Numbered from the stretch's first letter, positions 2,282 to 36,611 are shown. The stretch is DNA of 48,000 nt from Tolypothrix carrinoi HA7290-LM1 (GCA_019358935.1 JAHHIK010000063.1:1-48000); one strand, 5' to 3'. The notes: a model not told the origin generated them from the letters alone. Program-made: numbers and translations.

Positions 2282-2595
2282 CAGCGAAATGGATAGCCAA
2301 ATTCTTTTGGACTGCGGCTAACTAATTCCTTCAAACGTTCCTGATACTGGTCATTAACGGTTTTGGGTCTGCCAAGAGGGGAAGCATTCGAGTTGTGAGC
2401 TTCACCTGAGGATGCCACCAAAATCCAATGCCGTACCGTGACACGAGAGCAGCCTAACTGTTTACAGATTTGGCTCTGGGTTTTGCCTTCATCGGCTAGC
2501 AGCATAATTTGAACATTCTTCCGTCCCGCATTCCTCGCGACGTGTCGCCGGACAGAATATAAGTGTCCGGCGAACCGTCGCGTCCATGTAATCAT
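2206..2595 (-). mobile_element. IS630 (Tc1/mariner)-family transposase N-terminal fragment (pseudogene)
   Basis: The HTH region LLADEGKTQSQICKQLGCSRVTVRHWI and ..[42 protein letters not shown] are typical of IS630 N-termini. No DDE catalytic domain follows. The reading frame runs into the C39/ABC remnant at about 2230-2290. Confidence 0.7.
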
Positions 2596-5129: not shown

Positions 5130-5178
5130 CCTAGTAATAAGACTTTAATAATAATTATTAAAAAGGAAGGTATTTACT

Positions 5179-18000: not shown

Positions 18001-19512
18001 AAATTTATCCCTAATCCCTTTAGTGATAAGTCAGAAACACGCTTATATAAGACAGGAGATTTAGCTTGCTACTTAAGCGATGGCAAAGTCAAGTTTCTGG
18101 GTCGTATTGACAATCAAGTAAAAATTCGGGGCTTCCGCATAGAACTAGGAGAAATTGAAGCGATATTGACCAAACATCCTGCTGTTAGAGAGGTTGTAGT
18201 CGTAGGTCGAGAAATCAGCGCAGGCGACAAACGTCTAATTGCATATATTGTACCTGATGGAAATCAAACTCCGACCAGCGTTGAACTGCGCTACTTTCTT
18301 TTAGAGCAACTTCCTGAGTATATGGTGCCAACAAACTTTGTCATGCTCACTCGAATGCCTCTGACTCCTAACGGCAAGATTAATCGTCGTGCTTTGCCTG
18401 ACCCAGAGCGAAGTCTGAGCCAAGAAGAGCGTTTTGTCCCTCCTCGCAACAGACTCGAACTGGAACTGACCCAAATCTGGTCTGAAGTACTCAATGTTAA
18501 TCCAGTTGGCATTCAAGATAATTTCTTTGAGTTGGGAGGTCATTCCCTTTTAGCAGTTTCCTTAATGGCTCAGATTCAGCAGAAGCTTGGACAAATCTTA
18601 CCTTTGACAACTCTTTTTCAAGGAGCGACGGTCGAACAGCAAGCAATGCTTCTTCTAAAACAAACCGATACCCATCCTTGGTTTCCCTTAGTCGCGCTTC
18701 AGCCGAAAGGGTCGAAGCGTCCTTTGTTCTTTATCCATCCTGGTGGTGGTAGTGTCTTTAGTTACCTAGAGTTAGCTCAGTACCTGGGTACAGACCGACC
18801 GCTCTACGGACTGGAACCTAGTGGCTTCCTTAGCGGAGAGTCGCCACACTCGCAAGTCGAAGAGATGGCAGCACATTACATCAAAGCGATACAGACAGTC
18901 CAACCGAATGGTCCCTATTTGTTAGCAGGTTGGTGTATGGGGGGAGCGATCGCATTCGAGATGGCACAACAACTTCAAGCCCAAGGTCAGCAAACATCTC
19001 TGTTGGCATTAATGGAAATCTTTGATTTCTCTGCAAATTCCGACCGGCTCACAGTAGATGAAACAGCTCTTTTAGTACCTTTATTTAGAACTCACCTCTC
19101 CCTCTCGCAAGAGCAATTGCAACAAGTCGAAGCTAACTTGCGACAAATGGACGTTAATGAGCAGCTTGCTTATACCATAGAGCAAGCAAAGCAGCATAAC
19201 CTACAACTTCCTCTTGGTTTTGGGGTAGAACAGCTAGGTCGTCTCCTCAAGGTAAGGAAAATCCATGCTTGCGCTGCTGCGAAGTACGTTCCTCAACTTT
19301 ATTATCCAGGAAAAGTAACACTTCTCCAAGCCAACGAAGGAATCGCTGCCAACTCTAACAATCCAACCCAAGGTTGGGAGATGCTAGCCGATAAGGTAGA
19401 GCTACATTGGGTTCCGGGTAATCATCGCACAATGTTCCACGAACCTCATGTCAAAATACTTGCTGAAAAACTGCTTCTTTGTCTTGAGCAAACACAAGCA
19501 GAGGAATTATGA
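9082..19512 (+). CDS. NRPS, three modules plus thioesterase: C-A-T-C-A-T-C-A(Gly)-T-TE (predicted terminating synthetase)
   Basis: 3476 aa. C1 is HHIIADVWS (9511-), A1 YTSGSTGVPKG (10951-), and the T1 Ser is at 12154-12156. C2 is HHIIFDGWS (12730-), A2 FFTSGSTGTPKG (14155-), and the T2 Ser is at 15343-15345. C3 is HHIISDDWS (15919-), A3 YTSGSTGKPKG (17347-), and the T3 Ser is at 18544-18546. The TE begins RPLFFIHPGGG and has GWCMGG. Hand-extracted codes are A1 DIWEITADDK, A2 DARHFSLMVK and A3 DILQLGLIWK (the Gly code). An ATGA overlap joins it to the next gene. Confidence 0.95.
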   Translation: MFTPASEEVFIFPLSFAQERLWFLNQLDPNNTSYNIKSALQLDGQLNITALERAIQEIQQRHEVLRTTFKVIDGTPFQVIASASTLTLPVLELKGMAKEEKFVSVQRHISEEARKPFNLSTDFLLRISLLKLAEHSHVLQITVHHIIADVWSIGIFIQELTALYEAFCQGKLSPLPELPIQYADFAEWQRQWLSGEVLESQINYWKEQLAGAPPLLELPTDRPRPPVQTFSGSTERFQLSASLTQQIRSLSQQVGTTMFMTLLAAFALLLSRYSHQKDIIVGSSIANRNRQDIETLIGFFVNTLVLRIDLQSNPTFWELLQQVRQTTLDAYDQQDLPFEQLVEALQPERSLSHQPLFQVMFEMQNVPMGTLELSELTLTPLEPEHAIAKFDLMLTMQEVESGLLGTWEYNSDLFDAATIRRMIGHFQTLLAAIVGNPKCPVMQLPLLTDGEQQQLLVAWNDTQKDYPQDKCIHQLFEIQVEQTPEAVAVVCEGKHLTYRELNTQANGLARRLVEHKVGSETIVVLLAERSIEFLTGMMAVFKAGGAYLPLDPQYPQQRICEVLQQSQAPLVLVSNKFELVLSQAIESLSKQTRPKILRLEELCSQSKENLTVDSKPNHLAYIIYTSGSTGVPKGAMVEHQGMVNHLYAKIQDLQLTALDRIAQNARQSFDISVWQLLAALLVGGRVYIFNDEVACDPSQLLSQVEQQEITILEMVPSLLRMAIENLLSNQNQRLQLSKLRWLILTGEALPPQLCRQWFDCYPTIPMLNAYGPTECSDDVTHYFISQPPTTEVLNMPIGRAVANTRLYVLDSQLQPLPIGVTGELYVGGDGVGRGYLNNPQRTAEVFISDPFLQKPGARLYRTGDRVRYLLDGNIEFFGRIDHQVKVRGFRIELGEIEAVLTECPQVRETTVIVWEDHFGNKLLVAYVVPHQEQPTISTLRGFLRKKLPEYMVPTVFVFLEALPLTPNGKLDRRALPAPNASLSLDDNWVAPRTPTEEIIADIFLSVLKLEQVGVHNNFFELGGHSLLATQVVSRLRETFQVEMPLRTLFESPTVAELERAIASKLMTSGLVIPDIKPVSRDTEPLPLSWAQERLWFLDRLSGPNPTYNIPIAIQITGNLNVVALEQALTEIIRRHEVLRTTFPTVNGTPVQAIASPTACTLNVVDLRSINKNFQKDRVQSNATQEAQQPFDLTSDSLIRFKLLQLEEQSHVLLLTLHHIIFDGWSSEIFVRELLALYQAYIRQEPSPLFAPSIQYADFAYWQRQWLEAQVLETQLSYWKQQLGGTLPVLQLPVDNVHPATQNYKGEKQAIRLSKELTASLKALSRQEKATLFMSLLAAFKILLSRHTGQEDLIVGVPIAGRNHLGTENLIGFFINSLPLRTDLSGNPSFGQLLRKVREITLEAYQNQDIPFEKLVEQLRPERSLTRHPVFDVMFNMDNTPEVALEIPGLTFEPLDLAQPESKFWMTVFVQEVAEELNISLVYRQALFSSERMSNFLEQFEHLLQQIVVHPDRSIQSYSLITPQSRSLLPDASARLDEPDYEPVTALFAAWVEKAPRQTAIRKNGQVWTYNQLSESAHTIAQVLLSSGVQQGDVVAVYGAKSFELIASMLGVFFSGAVLLMLDSNLPDRRQQQMLQDAQAKYLLNVNTQSKQALLTKSSLEVIDVSPLFATTIENTTNCCLPTLNAGDRAYIFFTSGSTGTPKGVLGTHKGISHFLQWQRQTFEIGTFDRVAQLTSLTFDAVLRDVFLPLTSGATLCLPSQDYDLGSDRVLSWLQTEQITLVHTVPAVAQSWLTQVPFGIHLRSLRWIFFSGEPLTQTLVRQWRQTFPEAGEIINLYGATETTMVKCFYRVPKNTYAGVMPAGWALPQTQALVLNSTNQLCGIGEIGEIIIRTPFRTLGYINAIAEQQQRFVPNPDSNDPEDLLYYTGDKGRYRPDGAVEVLGRNDDQIKIRGIRIQPAEIETVLNQHPAVAESVVIATQLSAEDKRLVAYVVGTNQTFTLKDLRYFLKQHLPEFLVPSAFVVLDALPLTSNGKVNRQALPAPSLEVVTSASIKPRNPTEEVILSIFASVLKLQHLGVDDNFFEVGGHSLLATQIVSRLREAIQIEIPLRTLFEAPTVAELAQAIWALRQTTSGLVIPRIEPVSKNTDCLPLSWAQERLWFLDQLEGPGATYNMPAAVHISGQLDIVALEQALSELVRRHEILRTTFPLVNGVPVQVIAPPSATAIPLVDLRSASVEQTAEVKRLGSSETERPFDLARDFLLRVIILQLGDDSHVLLVTMHHIISDDWSIGIFIQELSTLYQAFLSKVPSPLPELPIQYADFAVWQRQWLKGEILDTQLNYWKQQLAGIPTLLDLPTDRHRPPVQTKRGSTESFELNADLAQQLKKLSQQSGTTLFMTLLAAFALLLSRYSRQEDIVLGSPIANRNRQEIEPLIGIFINTLVLRVDLQNNPTFLELLRRVRQMTLDAYAHQDLPFEQLVEALQPERSLSHHPLFQVMFVLHNAPIPTLELPGLTLTPLERKRTVAKFDLTLSMSETATGLAGTWEYNSDLFEADTIRRMIRHFQTLLESIVVNSEHPVGQLSLLTEQERHQLLVEWNNTQADYPVNKCVHHLFEEQAERTPEAIAVVFENQHLTYAELNLKANQLAHYLQSQGVTPETLVGICIKPSLEMVIGLLGILKAGGAYVPLDPEYPQERLAFMLSDSGIPVLLTTSDIKVELLKHQACLIDINKNWEIICQENRENLIGGVKPEQLVYVIYTSGSTGKPKGVQISHQSVVNFLTAMQQQPGLTNQDVLLSVTTLSFDIAALELYLPLTVGARVVLIPREVASDGIQLAQKLAKAAGEKNATVMQATPATWRLLLASGWQGSPHLKILVGGEALPQELATQLLDKGASVWNLYGPTETTIWSSVYKLKMRAKEACDADVEYIGRPIANTQFYILDRHLQPTPIGVPGELHIGGAGVARGYLNASELNTEKFIPNPFSDKSETRLYKTGDLACYLSDGKVKFLGRIDNQVKIRGFRIELGEIEAILTKHPAVREVVVVGREISAGDKRLIAYIVPDGNQTPTSVELRYFLLEQLPEYMVPTNFVMLTRMPLTPNGKINRRALPDPERSLSQEERFVPPRNRLELELTQIWSEVLNVNPVGIQDNFFELGGHSLLAVSLMAQIQQKLGQILPLTTLFQGATVEQQAMLLLKQTDTHPWFPLVALQPKGSKRPLFFIHPGGGSVFSYLELAQYLGTDRPLYGLEPSGFLSGESPHSQVEEMAAHYIKAIQTVQPNGPYLLAGWCMGGAIAFEMAQQLQAQGQQTSLLALMEIFDFSANSDRLTVDETALLVPLFRTHLSLSQEQLQQVEANLRQMDVNEQLAYTIEQAKQHNLQLPLGFGVEQLGRLLKVRKIHACAAAKYVPQLYYPGKVTLLQANEGIAANSNNPTQGWEMLADKVELHWVPGNHRTMFHEPHVKILAEKLLLCLEQTQAEEL
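18670..19509 (+). other. Type I thioesterase domain with Cys at the nucleophile position (GWCMGG)
   Basis: The alpha/beta-hydrolase TE layout reads PLFFIHPGGGSVFSY..PLYGLEP..GPYLLAGWCMGGAIAFEMA..WVPGNHRTMF. The position that is normally Ser in GxSxG is encoded by TGT at 18934-18936, in frame (residue 3285). Confidence 0.85.
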
Positions 19513-22500
19513 AAAATATGAAGTATTTGAATTATCCCCTGCAATCTCCCCATGAGTTCTTCACTTTTGTAGATATTCTGCGCCAGCGAGCAGAATGTCA
19601 GCCTGACTCAACAGCTTACATTTTCTTACAAGACGGAGAAACTGAAGAAATCAGCCTAACTTATCAAGAGTTAGACCTTTGCTCGCGGAGCATCGCCGCT
19701 CAACTTCAAAATCTGGAAGCGACGGGCGAGCGAGCACTACTTCTCTACCCACCGGGTTTGGAATTTATTTCTGCCTTTTTCGGGTGTTTGTATGCAGGGG
19801 TTGTAGCTGTTCCTGCTTATCCACCTCGGCGCAATCAGCGCATGACACGGTTGCAAGCTATTGTGGCTGACGCGCAGGCAACTTTTGCCCTGACCACGAC
19901 ATCTGTTTTAACCAATATTAAGCACAATTTAATAGAAGAACCAGAACTAGCAGCTTTGCGTTGGATAACTACTGACAATATTGCCACTAACCTAGTGGAA
20001 AATTGGCAAGTGCCGATGGTAAGCAATGATACATTGGCATTTCTCCAGTATACTTCAGGTTCTACAGGGACACCAAAAGGGGTGATGGTGAATCATGAAA
20101 ACCTGCTGCACAATGAACAAATGATACAGCAGGCATTTGGTCATTCTTCAGAAACTATCTTTGTCGGTTGGTTGCCTTTATTCCATGATATGGGACTGAT
20201 TGGGAATGTCCTGCAACCTTTGTACTTGGGTATACCAAGCATTCTCATGCCCCCAGAGGCTTTCCTGATGAAGCCTTTTCGCTGGCTGATGGCGATTTCC
20301 CGCTATAAAGCTACTACCAGTGGCGGACCGAATTTTGCTTACGATCTATGTGTTCAAAAGATTAATCCTGAACAACGGGCAAGTCTAGATTTGAGTAGCT
20401 GGGAAGTCGCTTTTAATGGAGCCGAACCAGTGCGTTGGTCAACGATAGAGCAGTTTGCTCGCACTTTTGCTGATTGTGGCTTTTCTCAAAGTGCATTTTA
20501 CCCCTGCTACGGGATGGCTGAGACAACTTTATTTGTTTCTGGGGGTTTAAAAACAAATCCACCTGTTGTCTACTCAGTTAAAGAGGCAGAACTTGAGAAA
20601 AACCGGGTGGTTGAAGCTAAGAGTGAATATGCGGGAACGAGGAAGATAGTTGGCTGTGGACAAGCGTGGTTAGATGAGAAAATCGCGATCGCTGACCCTG
20701 AATCTTTAACTCAGTGTCCAGCAGGGCAAGTGGGAGAGATTTGGGTTTCCGGATCGAGTGTAGCTGGTGGCTATTGGAATCGACCAGAGCAGACAAAACA
20801 AACTTTCCAAGCCTACTTGTCAGATACAGGCAGAGGTCCGTTTCTACGTACAGGTGATTTGGGATTTTTGCAGGATGGTGAGTTGTTCATCACCGGACGG
20901 CTCAAGGATTTGATTATCATTCGCGGTCGCAACCATTATCCCCAAGATATTGAACTAACAGTAGAAAAGTGTCACCCTGCACTGCGTCCCAACTGTGGAG
21001 CCGCGTTTTCGGTAACTCTCAACGGTCAAGAAAAACTGGCGATCGCTCAAGAGGTAGAGCGGAGTTTTCTGCGGAAACTAAACGCTAATGACGTGATTGG
21101 GGCAATTCGTCGAGCAGTAGCACAGCAGCACGATATAGAAGTTTTTCAGGTGCTGCTGCTCAGGACTGCCAGTATCCCCAAAACTTCCAGTGGCAAAGTT
21201 CAGCGCAGTGCTTGTCGGGCTGGGTTTCTAGCTGGAAACCTGAATGTGGAAGCATCTTGGTCTGCAAATCCTCAAAACCAAACAAAATTCCCGCATTTGG
21301 AAACGGAAGTAAAAGCAGAAAGTCAACAAGTGCAAACAGCATTGAGCCAGGATAAATCTTACAGTATTGAAGCTATCCAAGCTTGGTTAATTTCAAAAGT
21401 TTCAGAGCAACTGCAAGTTCTTCCAGAGGAAATAGACATTCAGCAACCCTTAGCCCAGTATGGTCTAAGTTCGATGGTTGCAGTTAGCCTTGCTGGTGTT
21501 GCTCAGGAATGGCTTGGACATAAAGTTTCTCCTACCTTATTGTACGATTATCCGACTATCGAACTTTTAGCCCAGCATCTAACAGAAAATACCTCTTCCC
21601 CATTGCCCATTGCCCATTGCCCCCCCACCAAGACGGAGGCGATCGCTATCATTGGTTTGGGCTGCCGTTTCCCCGGTGCCAATGACCCAAAAGCTTTCTG
21701 GCAGTTACTGCAAAACAAAGTGGATGCGATTACAGAAGTGCGATCGCGTTGGGATCTCAACGCATTGTATAACTCAGAACCCGCAACACCAGGGAAAATG
21801 AGTACCCGTTGGGGCGGATTTCTGGAGCAAGTAGACTCTTTCGACACCCAATTTTTCGAGATTGCGCCCCGAGAGGCAGAACGGATAGACCCTCAGCAAC
21901 GGCTGTTATTAGAGGTAGCCTGGGAAACACTGGAAAACGCTGCTGTGTCACCGAACAAATTAGCGGGTAGCCAAACTGGTGTCTTCATTGGTATCAGTAG
22001 CAATGACTATTCCCGGTTTCAGTGTGAGTCATATGCTGATATTGATGCTTACACTGGTACTGGTAATGCCTTGAGCATCGCCGCCAACCGCCTGTCCTAT
22101 GTGCTTGATTTGCGGGGACCTTCGTTAGCAGTAGATACCGCTTGCTCCTCATCCCTAGTATCCGTACACTTAGCGTGCCAAAGTTTGCAAAATAAAGAGT
22201 GCAACCAAGCTCTAGCAGGTGGGGTGAATTTAATTTTATCCCCAGAATTGACTATCACCTTTTCCCAAGCAAAGATGATGGCTGCCGATGGTCGTTGTAA
22301 GACATTCGATGCTGATGCCGACGGTTATGTGCGCTCGGAGGGCTGCGGCTTGGTACTCCTCAAGCGTCTTTCTGATGCCCAAAGCGACGGAGACAATATC
22401 CTGGCAATCATCAGAGGCTCGGCAATTAATCAAGATGGTCGCAGTAATGGGCTAACAGCGCCCAACGGACTTTCCCAGCAGGCGGTGATTCGGCAGGCAC

Positions 22501-24740
22501 TTTCAAACGCTGGTGTGACACCATCTGAACTAAGTTATGTGGAAACCCACGGTACGGGTACTGCCTTGGGAGACCCGATTGAGGTGGAGTCCCTTAAAGC
22601 AGTGCTGCTGTCAGACCAATCTGGCAACCAGCCCTGTGCCCTTGGTTCAGTCAAAGCCAATATCGGTCATTTGGAAGCTGCTGCGGGCATCGCCGGCTTA
22701 ATTAAAGTAGTACTCTCTCTACAACACGGGGAAATTCCACCCCAGTTACACCTAAACCAGTTGAATCCGCATATTTCTTTGAATGGTAGCTCATTTTACA
22801 TTCCCAAGGAGCGACAACCTTGGCTTGGCGGATCGAAGTCTCGTTTTGCAGGGGTGAGTTCATTTGGCTTCGGTGGCACCAATGCCCATGTCGTACTGGA
22901 AGAAGCACCAAATGTAGAGACGTTACATGATGTAGAGACGTTACATCTACGGTCTCTACGTGAACGTCCTCTAAACCTTTTAACGCTGTCAGCCAAAAGT
23001 GAGAAGGCGCTTTTGGAACTAGCGCAACGTTATGCGGCATTCAGTGAAACGAACCCGACTGCTTCAATTGCAGATATCTGCTTTACTGTTAATACTGGGC
23101 GATCGCATTTTGACCACCGTTTAGCCGTTGTTGCTGAATCTACCTTACATCTGCGCGAACAGCTAGATGCTTTTGCTGCCCGAAGGGAAACTGTTGGACT
23201 ATTTACGGGTCAGTTGACTAACCGCAAGCGCCCAAAAATAGCATTTCTATTTACGGGTCAGGGTTCTCAGTATATCGACATGGGACGGCAACTTTACGAC
23301 ACGCAGCCTACCTTCCGCAAAACCCTCGACCGCTGCGACGAAATTCTGCGTCCCTATTTAGAAAAGCCACTGCTGTCAGTCCTTTATCTGGACCTAAACG
23401 CAGCAGAGGAAAATACTCAATCTAAAATCGACGAAACCGCCTACACTCAACCAGCATTATTTGCTATAGAATATGCGCTCTACCAGTTATGGAAATCCTG
23501 GGGGATCGAACCTGCTGTGGTTATGGGTCATAGTGTGGGGGAATATGTCGCCGCAACTGTAGCTGGTGTATTTAGTTTGGAAGATGGTCTAAAGTTAATT
23601 GCCAAACGTGCTGCAAGAATGCAGGCTCTACCCAAAAATGGGAAAATGGTGGCAGTATTTGCGGATGAAGCACGGGTAAATTCAGCAATTCAACTTTATG
23701 CTCAGAATGTGGCGATCGCCGCTATTAATGCACCTGAAAACATTGTGATTTCTGGGAAACTGAATGCCATTGAAGCAGTAAGTGCTTCTCTGCGAGCCGA
23801 AGGCATTAAAACAAAATCTCTGCAAGTTTCCCATGCATTTCACTCGCCACTGATGGAACCCATACTAAACGATTTTACAGATGTTGCAGAGGCAGTTACT
23901 TATGCCAAACCTCATCTGCCCCTAATTTCCAACATTACTGGACAACTCGTCAATGATGACATTACTACCCCCCAATATTGGGTTCGTCACTTACGGCAGC
24001 CGGTCAAATTTGCCCAGAGCATCCAGACCTTGAACTTACATGGATGCGAAATCTTGGTAGAAATTGGACCAAAACCTGTTTTGCTGGGAATGGCACAACA
24101 ATGTCTCCCGCAAAATACAAAGCTATGCTTCTTGCCCAGTCTGCAACCAAAGCAAGAAGATTGGCAGCAGTTGCTGCACACTTTGGGGCAGATGTACGTG
24201 CAAGGAATAGAGGTCAACTGGTCTAAGTTTGATCGAGATTATCAAAGACGCAAAGTAATATTACCTACCTACCCATTTCAAAGGCAAAAATATTGGATAG
24301 AAACCAGCAATACAACCGCAAACAAACAAAAAAGTTTTCAGCCGCAAAATCAAACAAAGAAACATCCCCTTTTAGGTTATCGATTAGAAGGCTTGGCTCT
24401 TCCAAATACTTATATATGGGAAACCGAGATTGACGAGCAGTATCTTTCGTACCTAAAAGAACATCGAGTTTGGGAAACCGTACTCATGCCTCATACCGCT
24501 TATATAGAAATTGCTTTGGCTGCTGCCGAGGAAGCGTTTGATGTCAAGTCTAACCATCTAACTAATTTGAAATTACATCACCCCCTGTTTTTATCTGAGA
24601 AACGAGATCAAAAAATTCAAGTTGTCTTAGTTTCTAATTCTGATGCTTCGTTGTCTTTTCACGTATATAGCTGTCAAATCAATCAAGAATCATCCTCCCA
24701 AGGGTGGACTTTATATGCCACTGCACAGGTTCATCTTTAG
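19509..24740 (+). CDS. Loading and PKS part 1: FAAL-ACP-KS-AT(malonyl)-DH N-terminal hotdog only
   Basis: 1743 aa. The FAAL carries FVDILRQRAECQPDSTAYIFL.., YTSGSTGTPKG (20049-) and FLRTGDLGF..GRLKDLIIIRGRNHYPQDIE. The ACP is GLSSM (Ser 21471-21473). The KS has DTACSSS (Cys 22143-22145), HGTGT and NIGH. The AT has GHSVGE (Ser 23532-23534) and HAFH (23832-), the malonyl type. The DH half has HPLLG (24363-) and HRVWETVLMP (24462-). The ORF stops right after the first hotdog (..TLYATAQVHL*). Confidence 0.9.
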   Translation: MKNMKYLNYPLQSPHEFFTFVDILRQRAECQPDSTAYIFLQDGETEEISLTYQELDLCSRSIAAQLQNLEATGERALLLYPPGLEFISAFFGCLYAGVVAVPAYPPRRNQRMTRLQAIVADAQATFALTTTSVLTNIKHNLIEEPELAALRWITTDNIATNLVENWQVPMVSNDTLAFLQYTSGSTGTPKGVMVNHENLLHNEQMIQQAFGHSSETIFVGWLPLFHDMGLIGNVLQPLYLGIPSILMPPEAFLMKPFRWLMAISRYKATTSGGPNFAYDLCVQKINPEQRASLDLSSWEVAFNGAEPVRWSTIEQFARTFADCGFSQSAFYPCYGMAETTLFVSGGLKTNPPVVYSVKEAELEKNRVVEAKSEYAGTRKIVGCGQAWLDEKIAIADPESLTQCPAGQVGEIWVSGSSVAGGYWNRPEQTKQTFQAYLSDTGRGPFLRTGDLGFLQDGELFITGRLKDLIIIRGRNHYPQDIELTVEKCHPALRPNCGAAFSVTLNGQEKLAIAQEVERSFLRKLNANDVIGAIRRAVAQQHDIEVFQVLLLRTASIPKTSSGKVQRSACRAGFLAGNLNVEASWSANPQNQTKFPHLETEVKAESQQVQTALSQDKSYSIEAIQAWLISKVSEQLQVLPEEIDIQQPLAQYGLSSMVAVSLAGVAQEWLGHKVSPTLLYDYPTIELLAQHLTENTSSPLPIAHCPPTKTEAIAIIGLGCRFPGANDPKAFWQLLQNKVDAITEVRSRWDLNALYNSEPATPGKMSTRWGGFLEQVDSFDTQFFEIAPREAERIDPQQRLLLEVAWETLENAAVSPNKLAGSQTGVFIGISSNDYSRFQCESYADIDAYTGTGNALSIAANRLSYVLDLRGPSLAVDTACSSSLVSVHLACQSLQNKECNQALAGGVNLILSPELTITFSQAKMMAADGRCKTFDADADGYVRSEGCGLVLLKRLSDAQSDGDNILAIIRGSAINQDGRSNGLTAPNGLSQQAVIRQALSNAGVTPSELSYVETHGTGTALGDPIEVESLKAVLLSDQSGNQPCALGSVKANIGHLEAAAGIAGLIKVVLSLQHGEIPPQLHLNQLNPHISLNGSSFYIPKERQPWLGGSKSRFAGVSSFGFGGTNAHVVLEEAPNVETLHDVETLHLRSLRERPLNLLTLSAKSEKALLELAQRYAAFSETNPTASIADICFTVNTGRSHFDHRLAVVAESTLHLREQLDAFAARRETVGLFTGQLTNRKRPKIAFLFTGQGSQYIDMGRQLYDTQPTFRKTLDRCDEILRPYLEKPLLSVLYLDLNAAEENTQSKIDETAYTQPALFAIEYALYQLWKSWGIEPAVVMGHSVGEYVAATVAGVFSLEDGLKLIAKRAARMQALPKNGKMVAVFADEARVNSAIQLYAQNVAIAAINAPENIVISGKLNAIEAVSASLRAEGIKTKSLQVSHAFHSPLMEPILNDFTDVAEAVTYAKPHLPLISNITGQLVNDDITTPQYWVRHLRQPVKFAQSIQTLNLHGCEILVEIGPKPVLLGMAQQCLPQNTKLCFLPSLQPKQEDWQQLLHTLGQMYVQGIEVNWSKFDRDYQRRKVILPTYPFQRQKYWIETSNTTANKQKSFQPQNQTKKHPLLGYRLEGLALPNTYIWETEIDEQYLSYLKEHRVWETVLMPHTAYIEIALAAAEEAFDVKSNHLTNLKLHHPLFLSEKRDQKIQVVLVSNSDASLSFHVYSCQINQESSSQGWTLYATAQVHL
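24363..24737 (+). other. Dehydratase N-terminal hotdog subdomain at the C-terminus of the first PKS polypeptide
   Basis: HPLLGYRL..LKEHRVWETVLMPHTAYIEIALAAAE matches the DH HxxxGxxxxP region, with the catalytic His kept and Gly changed to Glu. It ends at the stop at 24738-24740. No second hotdog follows on this polypeptide. Confidence 0.75.
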
Positions 24741-24783
24741 ACAAACATATGTAAAATAAGCTTTGATATGAGAAAAATAAAGT

Positions 24784-25790
24784 ATGAAGTTCGGTTTGAT
24801 GTTTTTTGCCAGTAGTAAAGATGCTCTAATTAAAGATAAATACAGCCTGGTGATTGAAAGTGCCCAATTTGGCGATCGCCACGGGTTTTCTAGTATTTGG
24901 ACACCACAGCGGCACTTGACAAAATTTGGCAGTCTTTATCCGAATCCAGCAGTATTAAATGCAGTACTGGCAAGAGAAACTCGGCACATTAGGTTACAAG
25001 CCGGAAGTGTTGTTTTGCCAATTCACGATCCTATTCGGATTGCTGAAGAGTGGGCTGTTGTTGATAATTTGTCCGCTGGTCGAGTTGGGATATCTTTTGC
25101 TTGCGGTTGGAATCCCAATGACTTTGTTTTTTTTCCTGAGAAGTATAAAGACCGTTACAAAGAACTGTTTAACGGTATTGAGGTTGTCCGAAAACTCTGG
25201 CAAGGTGAATCTATTCAGGTGACTAATGGAAACGGAAATCAGATTGATTTCAGGATTTATCCAACACCAGTTCAACCAGAACTTCCAATTTGGATTACTG
25301 CTGCTAGTAACCCTCAAACCTTTATTAAGGCAGGAGAAATTGGTGCTAATCTTTTAACTCACCTATTAGATCAAGATATAGAAGAATTAGCCGATAAAAT
25401 TACCCTTTATCGTCAGGCACGAGCAAAGCATGGACATAATCCTGAAGGGATAGTGTCAATTATGTTACACACTTTTGTCGGTCAGGACTTTAATGTAGTT
25501 CGTGAACAAGTGCGTGTCCCTTACTGTGAATATCTCAAGTCTAATATTCGTCTACTTAAAGGTTTGGCTCAAAGTAGGGGTTCTAGATTAGATATATCTA
25601 CGCTATCTGAAAAAGACCTTGATGAGTTTGTTAACTTCTTGTTTGAAAGATTTGCCAACTCTAGAGGACTCATTGGCACACCAGAAACGTGTCTTGATTT
25701 GCTCAGGCAACTTGACAGTATTGGAGTAGATGAAGTATCCTGCCTACTTGACTTTGGTCTAAGTAAAAATCTCATTCTGGAACATCTACC
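24784..25790 (+). other. Embedded luciferase-like (FMN-dependent) monooxygenase domain
   Basis: The first roughly 335 aa of the 24784 ORF have the TIM-barrel LLM family pattern (MKFGLMFF, SIWTPQRH, RIAEEWAVVDNLSGGR-like, ELPIWITAAS). The boundaries are approximate. Confidence 0.75.
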
Positions 25791-28311
25791 TCATCTCAAT
25801 CAGCTTCGAGAACTTTATAACACTGAGGTGTCTGAGAAAAATGGCTCAGTTGTAAATCTTAACATTACTAATACTAATAGTATATTTTTAGATAATCCAG
25901 AAAAAGCTATACTAAAAACGAAAATTCTCCTTTCCACCGCAGAAACATTACCAGAAATCCGTAAGCGATGCACAAAGCATAAAAGTGCTGAAGAATTCTA
26001 TAAATTTTTGTATAAGCATGGACTTCGGCTAGGAAGAACTTTTCAGGGTATAGAAAATTTGTGGCTGGGTAAAAAAGAAGCACTAGCACAAGTAAAGCTT
26101 CAGCTTACAGAAAGCAACTCCTATAATTCTCTGAGAATTCATCCGCCTCTTTTAGAAGCTTGTCATCAAGTTCTCTTAGCAACTTTACTTGATAAAATAC
26201 ATTTGACCAATGAGCCGTCACTGTATTTACCTATGGGGTTCAAGAGTTTTCAAATCTACGAGCCGATGAGCAATCAGATTTGGAGCCATGCACTTTTGTC
26301 AAATGTAGACATTAAGGAATCAATTGAAGGGGATGTTCGCATATTTGATGAAAACGGAAAATTATTAGTAGAAGTTTTTGGTTTACAGATGCAGCGTGTT
26401 GAACACCTGAGCCATCAAACCAGCATTAAAGATAATTATGCAAATTGGTTTTATGAATTGCAATGGGAACTTAAGCCGCTGGTAAAATTAGAGTCTTTAC
26501 CTCGAGAACCAGGTAGTTGGATCGTCTTCGCCGATCGCCTGGGCATTGGTCAGACTCTGGCAAAACTTTTAGAGGCACAGGGACAAACCTGTTTTGTCGT
26601 TCATTGTCGCCAAGAAGATCGAACTCAAGTAGGTCAAATTCTGCTCGATCCAGCCGATCCTAAAGCGATGCAGGAACTAATCGAGCAGATGAAAACACAA
26701 CTGCCCTGTCGGGGTGTGGTGCATCTTTGGAGTTTGGATACGACACCCACTGAAGAAACAACAATCTCTTCATTAGAGAAGGATCAAACGCTTGCATTGA
26801 CAAGTACGCTACACTTAGTTCAAGCGCTCTTGAGGACAAACACATCTGAGTTGCCTCTGCTGTGGTTAGTGACCAGAGGAACGCAAAAAATTGGTTCAGA
26901 AGCTGATTTGCCAGCAATAGCTCAAGCTGCCACATGGGGGCTGGGACGTTCGCTTTCTATGGAGATGCCTCATATTTGGGGAGGACTTGTAGATATCGAT
27001 CGCCAATTTTCCATTGCCTCTGCTGCAAAAGCCTTGTTCGAGCAACTTTGGCATCAAGACGGAGAAAGCCAAATCGCACTCCAAAGCGATACTAGGTATG
27101 TTGCTCGGCTTGTGCCTAGCCAGAACGTGCAAATAAATACACAACCGCTAAGTTTGCATTCTGATGCAACATATCTGATTACGGGTGGTTTAGGACATCT
27201 AGGGCTGAACACCGCCCGTTGGATGGTTGACAAAGGAGCGCGACATATAGTATTAATGGGACGGAGCGATGCTTCGAGTACTGCTCGGCAAGCGATCGCT
27301 CAACTAGAAGATAATGGCGCTCAAGTCTTAGTTGTCAAAGCTGATGTCTGCAATCAAGCAGATGTTGACAGAATATTTGAGAAAATTAAGGCGTACTATC
27401 CGCCACTTCGGGGAATTTTTCATGCTGCTGGTGTCGCTGGATTTCACCCCTTGCAGGATATGACACCTGATGCGATCGAGTCTGTACTCAATCCCAAAGT
27501 AGTAGGAACGTGGAACTTACATCAAATCACTTTAGGGATGAAGTTAGACTTTTTTGTTTGTATCTCCTCTATTGCATCAGTTTGGGGATCTGAAGGACTA
27601 GCTCATTACGCAGCAGCAAACCACTTTCTTGATATATTTGCACATTATCGTCATAGTCTTAAATTACCTGCGTTAACAGTTAATGTGGGACTGTTAGCTG
27701 ATGGCGGTATGCATCGCCAGAAAGATTTTACAGGGATGGGGGAGCTACTTACTCAAATCGGGTTGAAATACTACTCCCCGCAAAATTTACTTAAAGCGGT
27801 GGAGTATTCCCTGGAAATAGGTGTCCCTCAGCAAATCATCATCGATATTGATTGGGCTATCTTTAAAGAACTTTATGAAGCACGGGAGCGCAGAACCCTC
27901 CTCAAACAAATTAACGTTCAATTGCCAAAGCCGTTTAAAGGACAATCAGGGCAACTGGGGGAGGTATTACAGCAATTAGAGAATGCATCCGAGGGCGATC
28001 GCTACGGTCTTTTGGTAGCTTATCTTCAGGCTAAAGTTGCCAAAGTTTTAAAACTCAAACATTCCCAACTACCGACTCCAGAACAAGGTCTTACTCAGAT
28101 GGGCATGGATTCTCTGACCGCAATGGAATTAAAAAATGGCATTCAAAAAGAATTAGGTATAGACATTCCCATAATACAATTTATCGGGGGAACGACTATT
28201 GCTGCTTTAGCCACTGAGTTAAACAAACAGTTGACTCAAGGGGATAGGGATCGAGAAATTGAGTTCTCAACAGACGAGCAGAATAGCGATTGGATTGAGG
28301 GGGAAATATGA
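24784..28311 (+). CDS. PKS part 2: luciferase-like monooxygenase (LLM) domain - DH C-terminal hotdog (degenerate) - KR - ACP - C-terminal docking tail
   Basis: 1175 aa. The N-terminus MKFGLMFFASS..GFSSIWTPQRH..LPIHDPIRIAEEWAVVDNLSAGRVGISFACGW is the FMN-dependent LLM fold embedded in natural-product synthases (MupA/MtaG-MOX type). It is followed by EEFYKFLYKHGLRLGRTFQGI and IHPPLLEACHQ, the second DH hotdog, with the LLD Asp replaced by Glu (GAA 26155-26157). The KR has TGGLGHLG (about 27184-) and the YAAAN Tyr at 27607-27609. The ACP is GMDSL (Ser 28111-28113). The tail is ..DWIEGEI. Confidence 0.9.
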   Translation: MKFGLMFFASSKDALIKDKYSLVIESAQFGDRHGFSSIWTPQRHLTKFGSLYPNPAVLNAVLARETRHIRLQAGSVVLPIHDPIRIAEEWAVVDNLSAGRVGISFACGWNPNDFVFFPEKYKDRYKELFNGIEVVRKLWQGESIQVTNGNGNQIDFRIYPTPVQPELPIWITAASNPQTFIKAGEIGANLLTHLLDQDIEELADKITLYRQARAKHGHNPEGIVSIMLHTFVGQDFNVVREQVRVPYCEYLKSNIRLLKGLAQSRGSRLDISTLSEKDLDEFVNFLFERFANSRGLIGTPETCLDLLRQLDSIGVDEVSCLLDFGLSKNLILEHLPHLNQLRELYNTEVSEKNGSVVNLNITNTNSIFLDNPEKAILKTKILLSTAETLPEIRKRCTKHKSAEEFYKFLYKHGLRLGRTFQGIENLWLGKKEALAQVKLQLTESNSYNSLRIHPPLLEACHQVLLATLLDKIHLTNEPSLYLPMGFKSFQIYEPMSNQIWSHALLSNVDIKESIEGDVRIFDENGKLLVEVFGLQMQRVEHLSHQTSIKDNYANWFYELQWELKPLVKLESLPREPGSWIVFADRLGIGQTLAKLLEAQGQTCFVVHCRQEDRTQVGQILLDPADPKAMQELIEQMKTQLPCRGVVHLWSLDTTPTEETTISSLEKDQTLALTSTLHLVQALLRTNTSELPLLWLVTRGTQKIGSEADLPAIAQAATWGLGRSLSMEMPHIWGGLVDIDRQFSIASAAKALFEQLWHQDGESQIALQSDTRYVARLVPSQNVQINTQPLSLHSDATYLITGGLGHLGLNTARWMVDKGARHIVLMGRSDASSTARQAIAQLEDNGAQVLVVKADVCNQADVDRIFEKIKAYYPPLRGIFHAAGVAGFHPLQDMTPDAIESVLNPKVVGTWNLHQITLGMKLDFFVCISSIASVWGSEGLAHYAAANHFLDIFAHYRHSLKLPALTVNVGLLADGGMHRQKDFTGMGELLTQIGLKYYSPQNLLKAVEYSLEIGVPQQIIIDIDWAIFKELYEARERRTLLKQINVQLPKPFKGQSGQLGEVLQQLENASEGDRYGLLVAYLQAKVAKVLKLKHSQLPTPEQGLTQMGMDSLTAMELKNGIQKELGIDIPIIQFIGGTTIAALATELNKQLTQGDRDREIEFSTDEQNSDWIEGEI
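25960..26430 (+). other. Dehydratase C-terminal hotdog subdomain with degenerate active-site motifs
   Basis: The YGP motif is degenerate (GLRLGRTFQ instead of GLxYGPxFQ). The LLDxxxQ/H motif reads LLEACHQ. The boundaries are approximate. Confidence 0.65.
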
Positions 28312-31300
28312 TTTTATCTGAGTTTTTACAAGAGATTTCAATCAAAGGTTGGAAATTATGGAGTGAGAATGGACGGTTGCGCTATCGTGCCCCCAATAAT
28401 GAAGCAACCTCCTCAGTATTAGAGCAACTTACACAGTATAAAGTAGAAATCCTGAAGTTGCTGCAACAGCCTAATCTCTTGGAGGTTTATCCCCTTTCCT
28501 ACGGTCAGCGGGCGCTATGGCTATTGTGGCAATTGGCACCTGAGAGTTGCGCGTATAACGTAGCTTTTAACTGTCGCATTCGCTCTGATGTAGATGTTGC
28601 CGCTTTGGAGAAAGTTTTTCAGGTACTGAGCGATCGCCACCCGATTTTGCGTAGCACTTTTCCAAAGCTAGGAACAGAACCGATTCAGCAGGTTAATCCC
28701 GAACAAAAAGTAGACTTCCAACAGATCGATGCTACCAACAGCCACGAGGAAGAACTGAAAACAAAGGTTATTGCCGCATATCAAACCCCGTTCGATCTCG
28801 AACGCGGACCAGTCATGCGCGTGAGACTGTTTACCAGATCGAAGCAAGAGCATATCTTATTGCTAGTCATTCACCATATTATAGGTGAAGGTTGGTCAAT
28901 CGGAATATTGCTGGATGAGTTGAAGGTGCTTTACCCAGCATTGAGAGCGGGTAGAGAGCTTACTCTTCCCCCTCCCGCACACTTGCATCAAGATTATGTG
29001 CGTTGGCAAAAGACAATAATCGATTTAGCAGAGGGAGAGCGTCTGTGGGACTACTGGCAGCAACAACTCGCAGGAGAACTACCCGTACTAAACTTGCCCA
29101 CAGATAAACCCCGACCCTCGGTACAGACTTACAATGGTGCTTCCTATCCCCTGTATCTGAGCGAAATTCTTACCCAGCAACTCAAGGAACTGGCTCAGTC
29201 TGAAGGAGCTACATTATACACGATTCTCTTAGCTGCTTTCAAGGTGCTACTGCATCGCTATACCGATCAAGATGATATTTTAGTCGGATCTCCAACTGCA
29301 AGCAGGCATCGCCCAGAATTTACGCAGATAGTCGGCTATCTGGTTAATCCAGTTGTTTTACGGACAAATTTATCAGGAAATCCCAGCTTTAAGGAGTTTC
29401 TTGCTCAAGTTCGCAACACGGTCAATGCAGCAATAGTACATCAAGATTATCCCTTTCCACTGATTGTAGAACGGCTGCAACTTCATCGCGATTCTAGTCG
29501 CTCACCTATCTTTCAAGCTTGCTTCGTCCTCCAAAAACTACAGCAAACTCCAGATGTCCTCAAATTGTATTCCAGTCAGGTAGGCACCGCCATAGAATGG
29601 GGGGGATTGGTGCTGGAACCTTATGAAGTGCCACAACAAGAAGGGCAGTTCGATTTGACTCTAGAGATAGCTGATAGCGATGCTTTGTTAGTTGGAGTCC
29701 TCAAATATAACGCTGACTTGTTTAACAAAGAAACCATCGCTCAGATGGCAAGTCATTTCCAAACGCTATTAGAAGGCATTGTAACTCACCCGGAACTGGC
29801 GATCGCTCAATTACCACTGCTGAACGAGCAACAGAGATACCAGTTGCTAGTGGAGTGGAACCAAACAGCAGCAGATTATCCACAGCATAAATGCATCCAT
29901 CAGTTATTTGAGGAGCAGGTGCAACGTACACCTAATGCCGTAGCGGTGGTGTATGAAAACCAGCAGTTGACCTACCAGCAGTTGAACGAGCGAGCCAATC
30001 AGTTAGCCCACTATCTGCAATCTTTGGGGGTAAAACCTGAGGTGTTAGTGGGTCTTTGTGTCGAACGTTCGCTAGAGATGATTGTTGGAATTTTGGGAAT
30101 TCTCAAAGCAGGTGGTGCTTATGTACCACTAGACCCTGAGTATCCCCAAGACCGTTTAGCCTATATGTTAGCAGATTCCCAAGTCCCGGTGCTGCTTACT
30201 CAAGAAAAACTTATCCCTGTGTTACCTAAGCATCCAGCGCACGTTATTTGTCTAGATACTAAGTGGGAACAAATTGCTACGGAACAAAAGACATATCCGG
30301 TAAGTGGTGTCCAACCAGAAAATTTGGCTTACGTAATTTATACTTCTGGGTCTACGGGAAAGCCGAAGGGTGTGATGAATGCTCACCAGGGGATCTGCAA
30401 TCGCTTGTTATGGATGCAAGAGGCATACCAATTGACACCCACAGATAGCGTGTTGCAAAAAACTCCTTTTAGCTTCGATGTCTCAGTATGGGAATTCTTT
30501 TGGACTTTGTTAGCAGGGGCACGTTTGGTTATTGCCAAACCAGGTGGACATCAAGATAGAGATTATTTGGTTAACCTCATTGCCCAAGAGCAGATTACCA
30601 CTGTGCATTTTGTTCCCTCGATGCTGCAAGTCTTTCTTGAAAGTCGAGATTTAGAACAATGTCACTGTTTGCGTCGGGTCATCTGTAGCGGTGAAGCCCT
30701 CCCCCTTGACCTACAGGAAAAATTCTTCCAGCGTCTTGGCGGTGAATTGCATAATCTGTACGGTCCAACAGAAGCGGCAATTGACGTGACAGCTTGGCAG
30801 TGTCAAAGAAACAGCGATTTGAGAACTGTACCTATCGGTCGCCCCATTGCCAACATGCAGATTTATATCCTCGATCCATATCTGCAACCTGTTTCCATTG
30901 GAATGACTGGTGAACTTTATATTGGGGGTATAGGAGTTGCTTGTGGCTACCTCAACCGTCCGGATTTAACTGCCGAAAGGTTTATTACCAATCCCTTCAC
31001 TAATTTTGGATTGTCGAGTCCAGAATTATCTGAAACTCAAGCGCAATTTAATAATCTAAAATCTCAAATCCAAAATTTAAATAAGAGTGAACGTCTGTAC
31101 AAAACAGGAGACTTAGCCCGCTATTTACCAGATGGCAACATTGAATTTATTGGGCGTATTGACCATCAAGTTAAGATTCGCGGCTTCCGCATTGAGTTGG
31201 GAGAGATTGAATCGGTTTTGAACACTCATCCTCAAGTGCAGCAAGTTGTAGTCATCACCAGGGAAGACCAACCAGGCAACAAGCGCTTAGTAGGCTATAT

Positions 31301-35812: not shown

Positions 35813-35824
35813 TCCTATGCGTAA
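35732..35824 (+). pseudogene. Truncated duplicate of the N-terminal docking domain of the 36672 NRPS (30-aa ORF)
   Basis: MNQKSVVKLLSQLRQLNIQVIAEGEKL is identical to residues 1-27 of the 36672 product. It then diverges (SYA, stop at 35822-35824) where the hydroxylase cassette begins. Its ATG overlaps the upstream stop (ATGA). Confidence 0.8.
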
Positions 35825-36611
35825 AAAATTATCTTGGGATATGCTTCGTAAGTTACTTCATGGTTACAATACTATTCGTAAAAATAGCCAAAAACCTGAA
35901 TTAGCTAGGTTAAAAGACATTTATTCGGGAAAGTTCCAGTTCGCTGAATTGGTTTCACCTAACTTTATTAGCCTGCTCAGTAAGGCTGTTAGTAAAGATA
36001 AGGACAGCCATTATCTTGACAAGATGCAGCGTCCATTACTATATTTTCCGTTCTTAACTGCCAAACCCTTTCACGAGAAAGACGAGAACGCAGAACTCTT
36101 GGAGCGATATGCAGATATTATCCGCAAGGAATTCTCTGCAATTGATGAATTCTTGTACAAAAAACATCCAGCGACGCTAGTTAAAGATGGCAAATGGGAT
36201 ACTTTTACACTTTTCCGTAATGGAGTAAAGCATGAGGCTAACTGTGCACTCTGTCCGGAAACAACCCGCATTATCGAGCAATTGCCACACTGCTGCAATT
36301 GGCATGGCATGGCCTATTTTTCAGTCCTTCAACCAGGGGTACACATTCCACCACACTGCAGTTACACGAATGGTCGCCTGCGATATCACTTAGGGTTGGA
36401 AGTACCAGAGGGCGTCTGGATACGAGTGAAGGATGATGTTCGTTATTGGATTTCTGACAAATGTCTAATCTTTGACGATTCATTCGAGCATGAGGTTTTC
36501 CATAAAGGGCAAACACGAAGAGTCGCCTTGATTGTAGATTTATGGCATTCAGACTTGAGCAAAGAAGAACGCAAAGCGCTTGAGGAGATTTATATCGAAT
36601 TCAAGACCTAG
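35817..36611 (+). CDS. Aspartyl/asparaginyl beta-hydroxylase-family (AspH/LpxO-like) Fe(II)/2OG oxygenase
   Basis: 264 aa. ..AYFSVLQPGVHIPPHCSYTNGRLRYHLGLEVPEGVWIRV..WISDKCLIFDDSFEHEVFHKG..RVALIVDLWH matches the family pattern G.xI.PH...N.RLR.HLGL.vP....i.V....W..G....FDDSf.HEv.N...R..L..D.WHP. Confidence 0.8.
   Translation: MRKKLSWDMLRKLLHGYNTIRKNSQKPELARLKDIYSGKFQFAELVSPNFISLLSKAVSKDKDSHYLDKMQRPLLYFPFLTAKPFHEKDENAELLERYADIIRKEFSAIDEFLYKKHPATLVKDGKWDTFTLFRNGVKHEANCALCPETTRIIEQLPHCCNWHGMAYFSVLQPGVHIPPHCSYTNGRLRYHLGLEVPEGVWIRVKDDVRYWISDKCLIFDDSFEHEVFHKGQTRRVALIVDLWHSDLSKEERKALEEIYIEFKT

Follow-up and report, generated by a model that had tools for sequence, protein, structure and literature searches.

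Introduction

How does a polyketide synthase (PKS) module work when its dehydratase (DH) is divided between two genes and a flavin-dependent oxygenase has been placed between the two halves? This question is raised by a 48,000-nucleotide stretch of DNA from Tolypothrix carrinoi HA7290-LM1 (GCA_019358935.1, JAHHIK010000063.1:1-48000), referred to here as the window. A PKS module in this cyanobacterial lipopeptide gene cluster consists of two proteins, and the break falls between the two halves of a DH-like fold. A preliminary description of the DNA had drawn attention to this junction, and its claims are considered below together with the domain anatomy, the distribution of the layout and its counterparts in characterised pathways.

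Domain organisation of the two proteins

The first gene, ORF A (19509..24740), encodes a FAAL-ACP-KS-AT-DH(N) protein of 1743 aa according to the ORF list, its translation and Pfam; this gene and all features of the module described below lie on the + strand. Pfam places the FAAL at aa 25-582, the ACP at 626-691, the KS at 710-1082, the AT at 1246-1568 and the N-terminal DH hotdog, DH(N), at 1619-1743. DH(N) (24363..24737) carries the motifs HPLLG and HRVWETVLMP and is matched by PF21089 (PKS_DH_N) over aa 1619-1721, from position 1 to 102 of the 103 in the profile (E 7e-23), so that ORF A does end, as first described, right after this hotdog with the stop at 24738-24740. The last strand of DH(N) occupies model residues 125-133 (aa 1734-1742) in AF2, and about one more residue follows before the protein ends.

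The stop and the spacer together occupy 24738..24783. The stop is TAG, and the spacer itself (24741-24783) has the 43 nt and the AT-rich composition given earlier, with 79% A+T; it is partly conserved with Brasilonema CT11, and no terminator or promoter matches were found inside it. ORF B is read in a different frame from ORF A, and both the ORF A stop and the ATG-AAR-TTY-GGT start of ORF B are conserved in relatives. The DH halves are therefore not on one polypeptide, being separated by the TAG, the 43-nt spacer, a change of frame and a luciferase-like monooxygenase (LLM) of 342 aa.

ORF B (24784..28311; 1175 aa) reads LLM - linker - DH(C) - KR - ACP and shares 61% identity along its entire length with the orthologue in Brasilonema sp. 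CT11. The LLM (24784..25809; aa 1-342), an FMN-dependent luciferase-like monooxygenase of the MupA/Atu3671 family, begins at Met1 without any N-terminal extension. TIGR04020 aligns with aa 3-342 over the whole of its profile (1-341 of 341) at 485.2 bits against a cutoff of 244.45, and among solved structures the Ox domain of PuwE is nearest (PDB 6KET, E 8e-121). A low-complexity linker (25810..25938; aa 343-385), in which Pfam gave no domain match and which measures 37-92 aa in relatives, leads to the C-terminal hotdog, DH(C) (25939..26409), matched by PF14765 (PS-DH) over aa 386-542 (profile 3-162 of 166, E 6e-31). The ketoreductase (KR; 26440..27699) is made up of a prefix, or structural subdomain, at aa 553-635 (NF047870) and a catalytic subdomain at aa 795-972 (PF08659, E 5e-68); it lacks the LDD motif and has the Trp and the YAAAN motif, and is A-type-like in this respect. 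The module ACP (28021..28215; aa 1080-1144, PF00550) is followed by an acidic C-terminal tail. The order first proposed for ORF B, with a complete LLM ahead of the second DH hotdog, the KR and the ACP, is borne out by the full-length TIGR04020 match, by PF14765 and by the KR and ACP matches.

Complementarity of the two halves

That the two segments are complementary subdomains of one DH, as had been supposed, is supported by the Pfam halves, by alignment to solved Cur DHs and by superposition of a joined AF2 model. DH(N) aligns with residues 7-133 of the CurK DH, 3-128 of CurF and 25-144 of PpsC, and ORF B aa 388-540 align with residues 150-299 of the CurJ DH, 145-286 of CurK and 142-282 of CurF; on the solved Cur DHs the ORF A tail and the ORF B half take complementary ranges of about 5-133 and about 145-299. 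PDB 6K97 is a sequence match for both halves. With the LLM left out, concatenated DH(N)+DH(C) gave an AF2 model of pLDDT 88.4 and pTM 0.88, which matched the full-length CurJ, CurK and CurF DHs with target-normalised TM-scores of 0.85-0.89 over about 297 columns; a double hotdog is favoured by construction in this comparison, since the halves were covalently joined and the alignment held ordinary contiguous DHs. A single-sequence AF2 run on the DH(N)+LLM+DH(C) chimera reached a pLDDT of only 32.

Distribution of the split layout

The homolog search was made with an AT+DH(N) query. The survey for the same synteny met the three-part layout DH(N), LLM, DH(C) in 83 of the loci examined, 79 of them split by the same stop/start junction and 4 fused, which is far beyond chance. 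These loci are spread over Cyanobacteria, Chloroflexota, Burkholderia, Acidobacteriota, Bacteroidota, Nitrospirales and Actinobacteria, at least seven phyla. The commonest architecture is FAAL-KS-AT-DHn / LLM-DHc-KR-ACP; KR-less members (LLM-DHc-ACP) also exist, and modules of the PuwE type and the P0027 type have an LLM without DH halves.

In the split loci the LLM always starts at Met1. Across loci, a median of 7 aa follows DH(N), and the gaps between stop and start run from -35 to 565 nt; because these gaps vary in this way, recoding or frameshifting across the spacer was rejected. The LLM-DHc proteins among the best 120 LLM homologs begin at the LLM start or within a few residues of it. 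A crude neighbour-joining tree built from the LLM domains does not bring the four fused forms together in one tight clade. With the same junction conserved in 79 loci, the earlier view that the module must be put together from two proteins stands, and the junction is no assembly error.

The layout, of which the preliminary description knew no described case, is real yet already known: about 80 genomes contain it, and among them is the published, product-linked cyanochelin B cluster.

Comparison with characterised systems

The loading module of cyanochelin B, encoded by BAU16016 and CcsC (BAU16015) on plasmid 2 of Leptolyngbya sp. NIES-3755 (AP017310.1), is broken at the identical point. Both systems read FAAL-ACP-KS-AT-DH_N / LLM-DHc-...-KR-ACP, the LLM-DHc region of CcsC is 51% identical to that of the window's ORF B, and the cyanochelin B cluster likewise has an NRPS next, Asp beta-hydroxylases and heterocycle formation. 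They differ in that CcsC is LLM-DHc-cMT-KR-ACP, with a C-methyltransferase between DHc and KR that is missing from the window, in that the cyanochelin B DH keeps HxxxG and the Asp where the window has HxxxE and Glu458, and in the stop/start gap, which is 12 nt in cyanochelin B and 43 nt in the window. The cyanochelin B product contains a 2,3-dihydroxy-2-methyl acyl unit beside a thiazoline, corresponding to alpha-hydroxylation with the beta-OH retained (PMC12628792). The published scheme for this module is KS-AT-Ox-cMT-KR; the DH halves are not mentioned, and the word 'dehydratase' occurs 0 times in the text (PMC12628792). Nesting of DH and LLM is not described in the papers on myxoglucamide, megapolipeptin, palmerolide and Floridanema. 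In annotating loading modules of the cyanochelin type, the 'Ox' domain should be read as nested in a DH-like fold.

Nor is a split DH new in itself. In the cis-AT PKS for cremimycin one part of the DH closes CmiP3 and the other opens CmiP2 (PMC11284099); 6K97 is the structure of an artificially fused form, and this fused DH is an active dehydratase that gives a 2-enoyl product. The cremimycin junction, from an actinomycete macrolactam pathway, has no inserted domain; the window's N half ends ORF A as in cremimycin, but its C half follows the LLM and does not stand at the N-terminus of ORF B.

With regard to the oxygenase, the window's LLM shares the TIGR04020 family with MupA of mupirocin and with the Ox domain of PuwE (puwainaphycin, 6KET), each of which corresponds to hydroxylation at the alpha-carbon of a chain carried on an ACP. 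The substrate of MupA is a beta-keto thioester, which it hydroxylates at the alpha position and which has to be tethered to the ACP (PMC10952193); MupA differs in being a free-standing enzyme that works in trans in a trans-AT PKS. A monooxygenase inside another assembly-line domain is also found in the MOX of MtaG and MelG (myxothiazol, melithiazol), where the alpha-carbon is hydroxylated; there the monooxygenase lies in an NRPS adenylation domain of an unsplit protein, the substrate is a glycyl residue, and a terminal amide is formed (PMC11411415).

Proposed function and alternatives

We consider it about 68% probable that ORF A and ORF B form, on two polypeptides, the first module of a lipopeptide assembly line like that of cyanochelin, one that loads the lipid and alpha-hydroxylates it, with a double hotdog that is reassembled and does not dehydrate. 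The FAAL of ORF A would activate a fatty acid, the ACP would tether it, and KS-AT would extend the chain by one malonyl unit onto the ACP of ORF B. With reduced FMN and O2, the LLM would hydroxylate the alpha-carbon of the ACP-bound beta-ketoacyl thioester, and the A-type-like KR would next reduce the beta-keto group, giving a 2,3-dihydroxy fatty acyl-ACP that would be handed to the next NRPS through its TubC-type docking domain. The chemistry, which we infer from the structure of cyanochelin B and the biochemistry of MupA, is in keeping with the earlier suggestion that the LLM alpha-hydroxylates an ACP-bound intermediate: the cyanochelin B acyl unit (PMC12628792), the MupA reaction (PMC10952193) and the 6KET match together make this its most likely activity.

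The DH-like double hotdog, for its part, would carry out no dehydration and would act as a scaffold or docking device. Most likely, DH(N) and DH(C) reassemble non-covalently into one double hotdog, which would link KS-AT with LLM-KR-ACP and keep the LLM inside the reaction chamber of the module. The following NRPS (28308-35735) opens with a TubC-type N-terminal docking domain (28317..28469, likewise on the + strand; PF18563, E 6e-11), and the NRPS at 36672 has a second one (E 2e-19), so other junctions of the assembly line use canonical docking elements. No docking domain was found at the junction of ORF A and ORF B. Since the break point is conserved in about 80 loci without a canonical docking domain, the two hotdog halves suggest themselves as a natural subunit interface, and a docking role for them is what we infer from the absence of another docking element and from the split-DH precedent. 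Reconstitution of the hotdog as a docking device, an idea already put forward in the preliminary description, is a plausible candidate.

A wider proposal can be offered tentatively, as one that may well prove wrong, namely that a vestigial double hotdog has evolved into a portable 'hotdog-complementation' docking device, which joins two PKS polypeptides and clamps a flavin hydroxylase in the reaction chamber, and which, outside the window's sub-clade, where the His-Asp pair is retained, may also help to abstract the alpha-proton in a composite DH/LLM hydroxylase site. If the docking-device reading is true, it would represent a class of PKS subunit interface not yet described, one that is conserved in at least seven phyla and could be reused in engineering split synthases. 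In this layout, a PKS gene stopping halfway through a DH is neither truncated nor misassembled, and such an end would mark an alpha-hydroxylating module that supplies a 2,3-dihydroxy or 2-hydroxy-3-keto fatty acyl starter.

Could the DH-like fold instead still be catalytic and work together with the LLM? The KR and then the DH could make a 2-enoyl thioester, a flavin peroxide could turn it into an epoxide and the epoxide could then be opened to the diol, or the DH His could abstract the alpha-proton and pass the enolate to the LLM. The altered catalytic motifs had been taken as a sign that the DH is probably not a normal dehydratase, and they were read correctly: in HRVWETVLMP, His1652 (24462-24464) and the Pro are kept and the motif Gly is Glu1656 (GAA 24474-24476), DH(C) has LGR at the YGP position, and in HPPLLEACHQ the catalytic Asp is Glu458 (GAA 26155-26157) with the Gln kept. 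As an argument they are weaker than first put. The loss of YGP was rejected as a sign of inactivity, because the active CurJ DH reads HLGQSF at this position, with LGQ, and also lacks YGP. The other two changes are limited to the window's sub-clade (Gly-to-Glu and Asp-to-Glu/Asn) and are not found in the family as a whole, in which 69 of 80 loci retain the His of HxxxGxxxxP and 69 of 80 the Asp, a hint that beyond the sub-clade the fold has kept some part in catalysis. The connected cremimycin split DH, as an active dehydratase, also speaks for a catalytic fold.

Against it stand the sub-clade changes themselves and the His-to-Tyr replacement in the nearest relatives, L008 and L009; with HxxxE and Asp-to-Glu, they suggest that the DH is dispensable as a catalyst in the window's clade. 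Furthermore, the KR-less members would be unable to make a DH substrate, MupA needs no DH to act on the beta-keto thioester directly, and PuwE-type and P0027-type modules do without the DH halves. A catalytic DH-like fold working with the LLM is unlikely in our judgement. Net dehydration is argued against by the beta-OH that the homologous cyanochelin B module leaves in its product, and the earlier opinion that this is probably not a normal dehydratase is strengthened by the 2,3-dihydroxy-2-methyl acyl unit which that module yields.

Similarly doubtful is that the LLM of this strain is itself catalytically impaired, in which case the starter would be a plain 3-hydroxy fatty acyl group and the LLM and DH halves would serve as a scaffold only. 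The active-site motif (24904..24918) reads PQRHL where the invariant form is PERHF; E42Q and F45L are unique to the window's LLM, whereas 115 of 115 homologs, like every relative surveyed, have the E and the F. Because of these unique changes in an otherwise invariant motif, this copy may be impaired. They adjoin His44, which, from the 37-residue spacing of F511 to H548, would be the counterpart of H548, the essential His of the MxgE Ox domain (PMC13638107). However, His44 is kept, and the LLM is identical at 57 of the 61 columns of at least 95% conservation; its TIGR04020 match scores at double the cutoff, both substitutions (E-to-Q and F-to-L) are conservative, and the large ORFs of the cluster are all intact. 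For this strain, the variant leads one to expect either that the change is tolerated or that the product is less oxidised.

Much less probable is another oxygenation by the LLM, for example Baeyer-Villiger oxygen insertion or chain shortening: such chemistry has been proposed for some PKS-associated LLMs, according to a review (PMC8739492), but the closest relatives with a known product (cyanochelin B CcsC, PuwE and MupA) all correspond to an alpha-hydroxyl. Least credible is that the split is an artefact of assembly, sequencing or a recent pseudogenising mutation and that the true gene is one fused ORF, for although four natural fused versions exist (L081, L083, L084 and L086), the stop and ATG recur at matching places in 79 loci, whose assemblies and phyla are independent and whose spacers vary, ORF A and ORF B are in different frames, and DH_N is present in none of the best 120 LLM homologs.

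Cluster context

The host lipopeptide gene cluster is probably of the siderophore type. No TonB-dependent receptor was seen within the window. An Asp beta-hydroxylase (PF05118) is encoded at 35817-36611, a nitroreductase-type Ox sits inside the NRPS at 28308-35735, and an ABC transporter is found at 6275. The features of a cyanochelin-type context, that is, an Asp beta-hydroxylase, a heterocycle-forming NRPS with an oxidase and a transporter, are present.

A dehydratase fold divided between two proteins

ORF A (19509..24740, + strand, 1743 aa) carries Pfam AMP-binding/FAAL, PP-binding, KS, AT and PKS_DH_N domains, of which the last (PF21089, the N-terminal hotdog) occupies aa 1619-1721, matches profile positions 1-102 of 103 (E 7e-23) and is followed by no further Pfam domain. 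The TAG stop codon (24738-24740) is succeeded by a 43-nt spacer of 79% A+T, after which the consecutive ORF B (24784..28311, + strand, 1175 aa), in a different reading frame, encodes from Met1 a complete luciferase-like monooxygenase (LLM) of the MupA/Atu3671 family, whose namesake is MupA (TIGR04020 profile 1-341 of 341, 485 bits; cutoff 244). A 43-aa linker leads to the C-terminal hotdog, PS-DH (PF14765, aa 386-542, E 6e-31), and then to KR and ACP domains.

In sequence searches against solved structures, the ORF A tail aligns with CurK DH 7-133, CurF DH 3-128 and PpsC DH 25-144, and ORF B aa 388-540 with CurJ DH 150-299, CurK 145-286 and CurF 142-282. These successive ranges place the break in the loop that connects the hotdogs and bear out the preliminary description, which had taken the two pieces as complementary DH halves. 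When ORF A aa 1610-1743 was joined covalently to ORF B aa 372-560 for structure prediction with a 57-row alignment, the model reached a pLDDT of 88.4 and a pTM of 0.88. It superposes on the full-length CurJ, CurK and CurF DHs over ~297 columns (target-normalised TM-score 0.85-0.89, rmsd 2.5-3.5 Å), in a test biased towards the double hotdog by the covalent link and by the ordinary contiguous DHs in the alignment. The predicted model thus shows compatibility of the halves, not their association.

The split is widespread

None of the best 120 homologs listed for the LLM-DHc region contains DH_N; in those that are LLM-DHc proteins the LLM comes first, the N-terminus coinciding with M[QK]FGL or lying no more than ~25 residues from it. 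A scan of 185,579 genomes, one per species, with an LLM-tail+DHc alignment confirmed 493 relatives; the 80 best loci were kept, and DH(N), LLM and DH(C) were located with an HMM built in-house for each. Counting the window and previously retrieved loci, 83 loci contain all three. Of these, 79 close one ORF with DH(N) and open the following one with the LLM; they are found in Cyanobacteria, Ktedonobacteria and other Chloroflexota, Burkholderia chromosome 3, Acidobacteriota, Bacteroidota, Nitrospirales, Streptomyces and Nonomuraea; only four (two Bradyrhizobium, one Vicinamibacterales, one Thermoanaerobaculia) have all parts in a single ORF. The split is real and common. Across the surveyed loci, 1-38 aa (median 7) extend past the DH(N) model, and stop and start are separated by -35 to 565 nt (median 43), with an ATGA overlap at many junctions. 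The possibility, raised in the preliminary description, of an assembly error at 24738-24783 is excluded, as are a recent pseudogene and a recoding site, because the split recurs in 79 loci over this span of distances, the stop and the ATG-AAR-TTY-GGT start sit at equivalent positions in relatives, and the spacer is partly conserved in Brasilonema sp. CT11, where the orthologue of ORF B shows 61% full-length identity.

The commonest surveyed architecture is that of the window itself, FAAL-(ACP)-KS-AT-DHn followed by LLM-DHc-KR-ACP, and variants have a cMT or lack the KR. The natural one-ORF forms (L081 and L084, Bradyrhizobium; L083, Vicinamibacterales; L086, Thermoanaerobaculia) have 12-34 aa between DH(N) and LLM and would be useful templates for structural work. 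A conserved Burkholderia cepacia-complex locus on chromosome 3 or a megaplasmid (L006, L040-L062) reads FAAL-KS-DHn, then LLM-DHc-KR, with an ATGA stop/start overlap. In a Trichodesmium MAG (L017, 4062-4631) the DH(N) stop and LLM start lie an unusually long 565 nt apart, and a normal contiguous DH module occurs further downstream within that locus. A high-GC PKS (P0027, 906 aa, on a 1.17-Mb contig) has AT-LLM-KR on one polypeptide and neither DH half, and thus an LLM can fill the DH position without the hotdog frame.

Role of the DH-like fold

The altered motifs noted earlier were all found: HRVWETVLMP keeps the His with Gly replaced by Glu, LGR stands at the YGP position, and HPPLLEACHQ has Glu for Asp (GAA, 26155-26157). 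The loss of YGP, previously read as a sign of altered catalysis, is uninformative, since the active CurJ DH has LGQ there. In the window's sub-clade the Gly has become Asp or Glu, the Asp has become Glu or Asn, and in the two nearest relatives the DH His is Tyr; this decay suggests that dehydration is not under selection there. No docking domain was detected by domain search at the ORF A/ORF B junction; TubC_N is present at other junctions of the cluster. In cremimycin biosynthesis, a DH is likewise divided between two PKS proteins, CmiP3 and CmiP2, and its artificially joined form is active (PDB 6K97; PMC11284099); both window halves match 6K97 in sequence. On these grounds we favour, and infer, that the fold serves as a scaffold and, by complementation of its hotdogs, as a docking device. 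Outside the sub-clade, a residual catalytic role is a less likely rival explanation, as family-wide 69 of 80 loci retain the DH His and 69 of 80 the Asp.

LLM chemistry

Among solved structures, the PuwE Ox domain (6KET, E 8e-121) is closest to the window's LLM; the PuwE pathway yields a 3-amino-2-hydroxy fatty acid (PMC4219810). MupA hydroxylates the alpha-carbon of a beta-keto thioester only on the right ACP (PMC10952193). The most economical reading would have the FAAL-loaded fatty acid extended by KS-AT, C-2 of the 3-oxoacyl-ACP hydroxylated by the LLM, C-3 reduced by the KR, which appears A-type-like by sequence (Trp present, no LDD motif), and the 2,3-dihydroxyacyl chain passed to the NRPS. 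Hydroxylation at the keto stage fits the KR-less LLM-DHc-ACP relatives of Scytonema PCC 10023 (L001-L003, L082) and Hapalosiphonaceae JJU2 (L004), whose predicted products are 2-hydroxy-3-keto acyl chains. All of these Scytonema contigs break off within DH(N), ~240-320 nt before the LLM gene begins.

Among 115 homologs, 61 columns of the LLM reach 95% conservation or more, and the window agrees with 57 of them. Two of the four mismatches fall in one motif, PERHF, invariant in 115/115 homologs and in every surveyed relative, which reads PQRHL here (24904-24918, ORF B aa 41-45) through single-base codon changes (CAG for GAG, TTG for TTY). The changed residues adjoin the retained His, apparently equivalent, from the 37-residue spacing of F511 to H548, to MxgE H548, which is essential for alpha-oxidation by that Ox domain (PMC13638107). 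This copy of the LLM could be attenuated.

Relation to cyanochelin B

The best plasmid match to the LLM-DHc query lies on plasmid 2 of Leptolyngbya sp. NIES-3755 (AP017310.1; 51% identity, 100% of the query), where BAU16016 is FAAL-ACP-KS-AT-DH_N and, 12 nt on, BAU16015 (CcsC in the cyanochelin B cluster) is LLM-DHc-cMT-KR-ACP. The published scheme for this module is KS-AT-Ox-cMT-KR, with no mention of a dehydratase, and the product bears a 2,3-dihydroxy-2-methyl acyl unit on a thiazoline (PMC12628792). The LLM of this homologous module thus corresponds to the alpha-hydroxyl, and the beta-hydroxyl is kept. The window module is a member of, and works like, this cyanochelin-type alpha-hydroxylating loading module, but it lacks the cMT and its DH is more degenerate. 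It combines two known things, the split DH shared with cremimycin and the assembly-line LLM hydroxylase shared with MupA and PuwE. The view that no split-DH/LLM arrangement had been described therefore fails for the layout, which is common and includes the cyanochelin B genes; it stands insofar as the literature within reach of our search, which did not extend to the founding cyanochelin paper, nowhere spells out that Ox is nested between two hotdogs or that the break point is conserved. For annotation, this anatomy offers a modest but useful general insight, and it provides a testable structural hypothesis.

By gene content, the window's cluster is of the same flavour as that of cyanochelin B. 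The NRPS at 28308-35735 has a nitroreductase-family oxidase domain (aa 2129-2304) inside its second module, which suggests oxidation of a thiazoline or oxazoline to an azole, and is followed by a stand-alone Asp beta-hydroxylase (35817-36611); TubC-type docking domains and an ABC transporter are also present. An adjacent pair of genes at 4095-6213, for a PLP-dependent enzyme (PALP) and an ornithine cyclodeaminase (OCD)/mu-crystallin protein, resembles SbnA/SbnB, which make 2,3-diaminopropionate, and may supply a non-proteinogenic building block. A TE-bearing three-module NRPS (9082-19512) lies upstream of the FAAL loading gene (19509-24740), overlapping it by 4 nt, so that gene order is not colinear with assembly order. 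Seeming cluster-edge debris occupies 1505-3626, comprising a 257-aa fragment on the - strand that fuses a piece of a C39 peptidase with the end of an ABC ATPase, together with part of an HTH transposase and a truncated IS605 OrfB/TnpB-like ORF.
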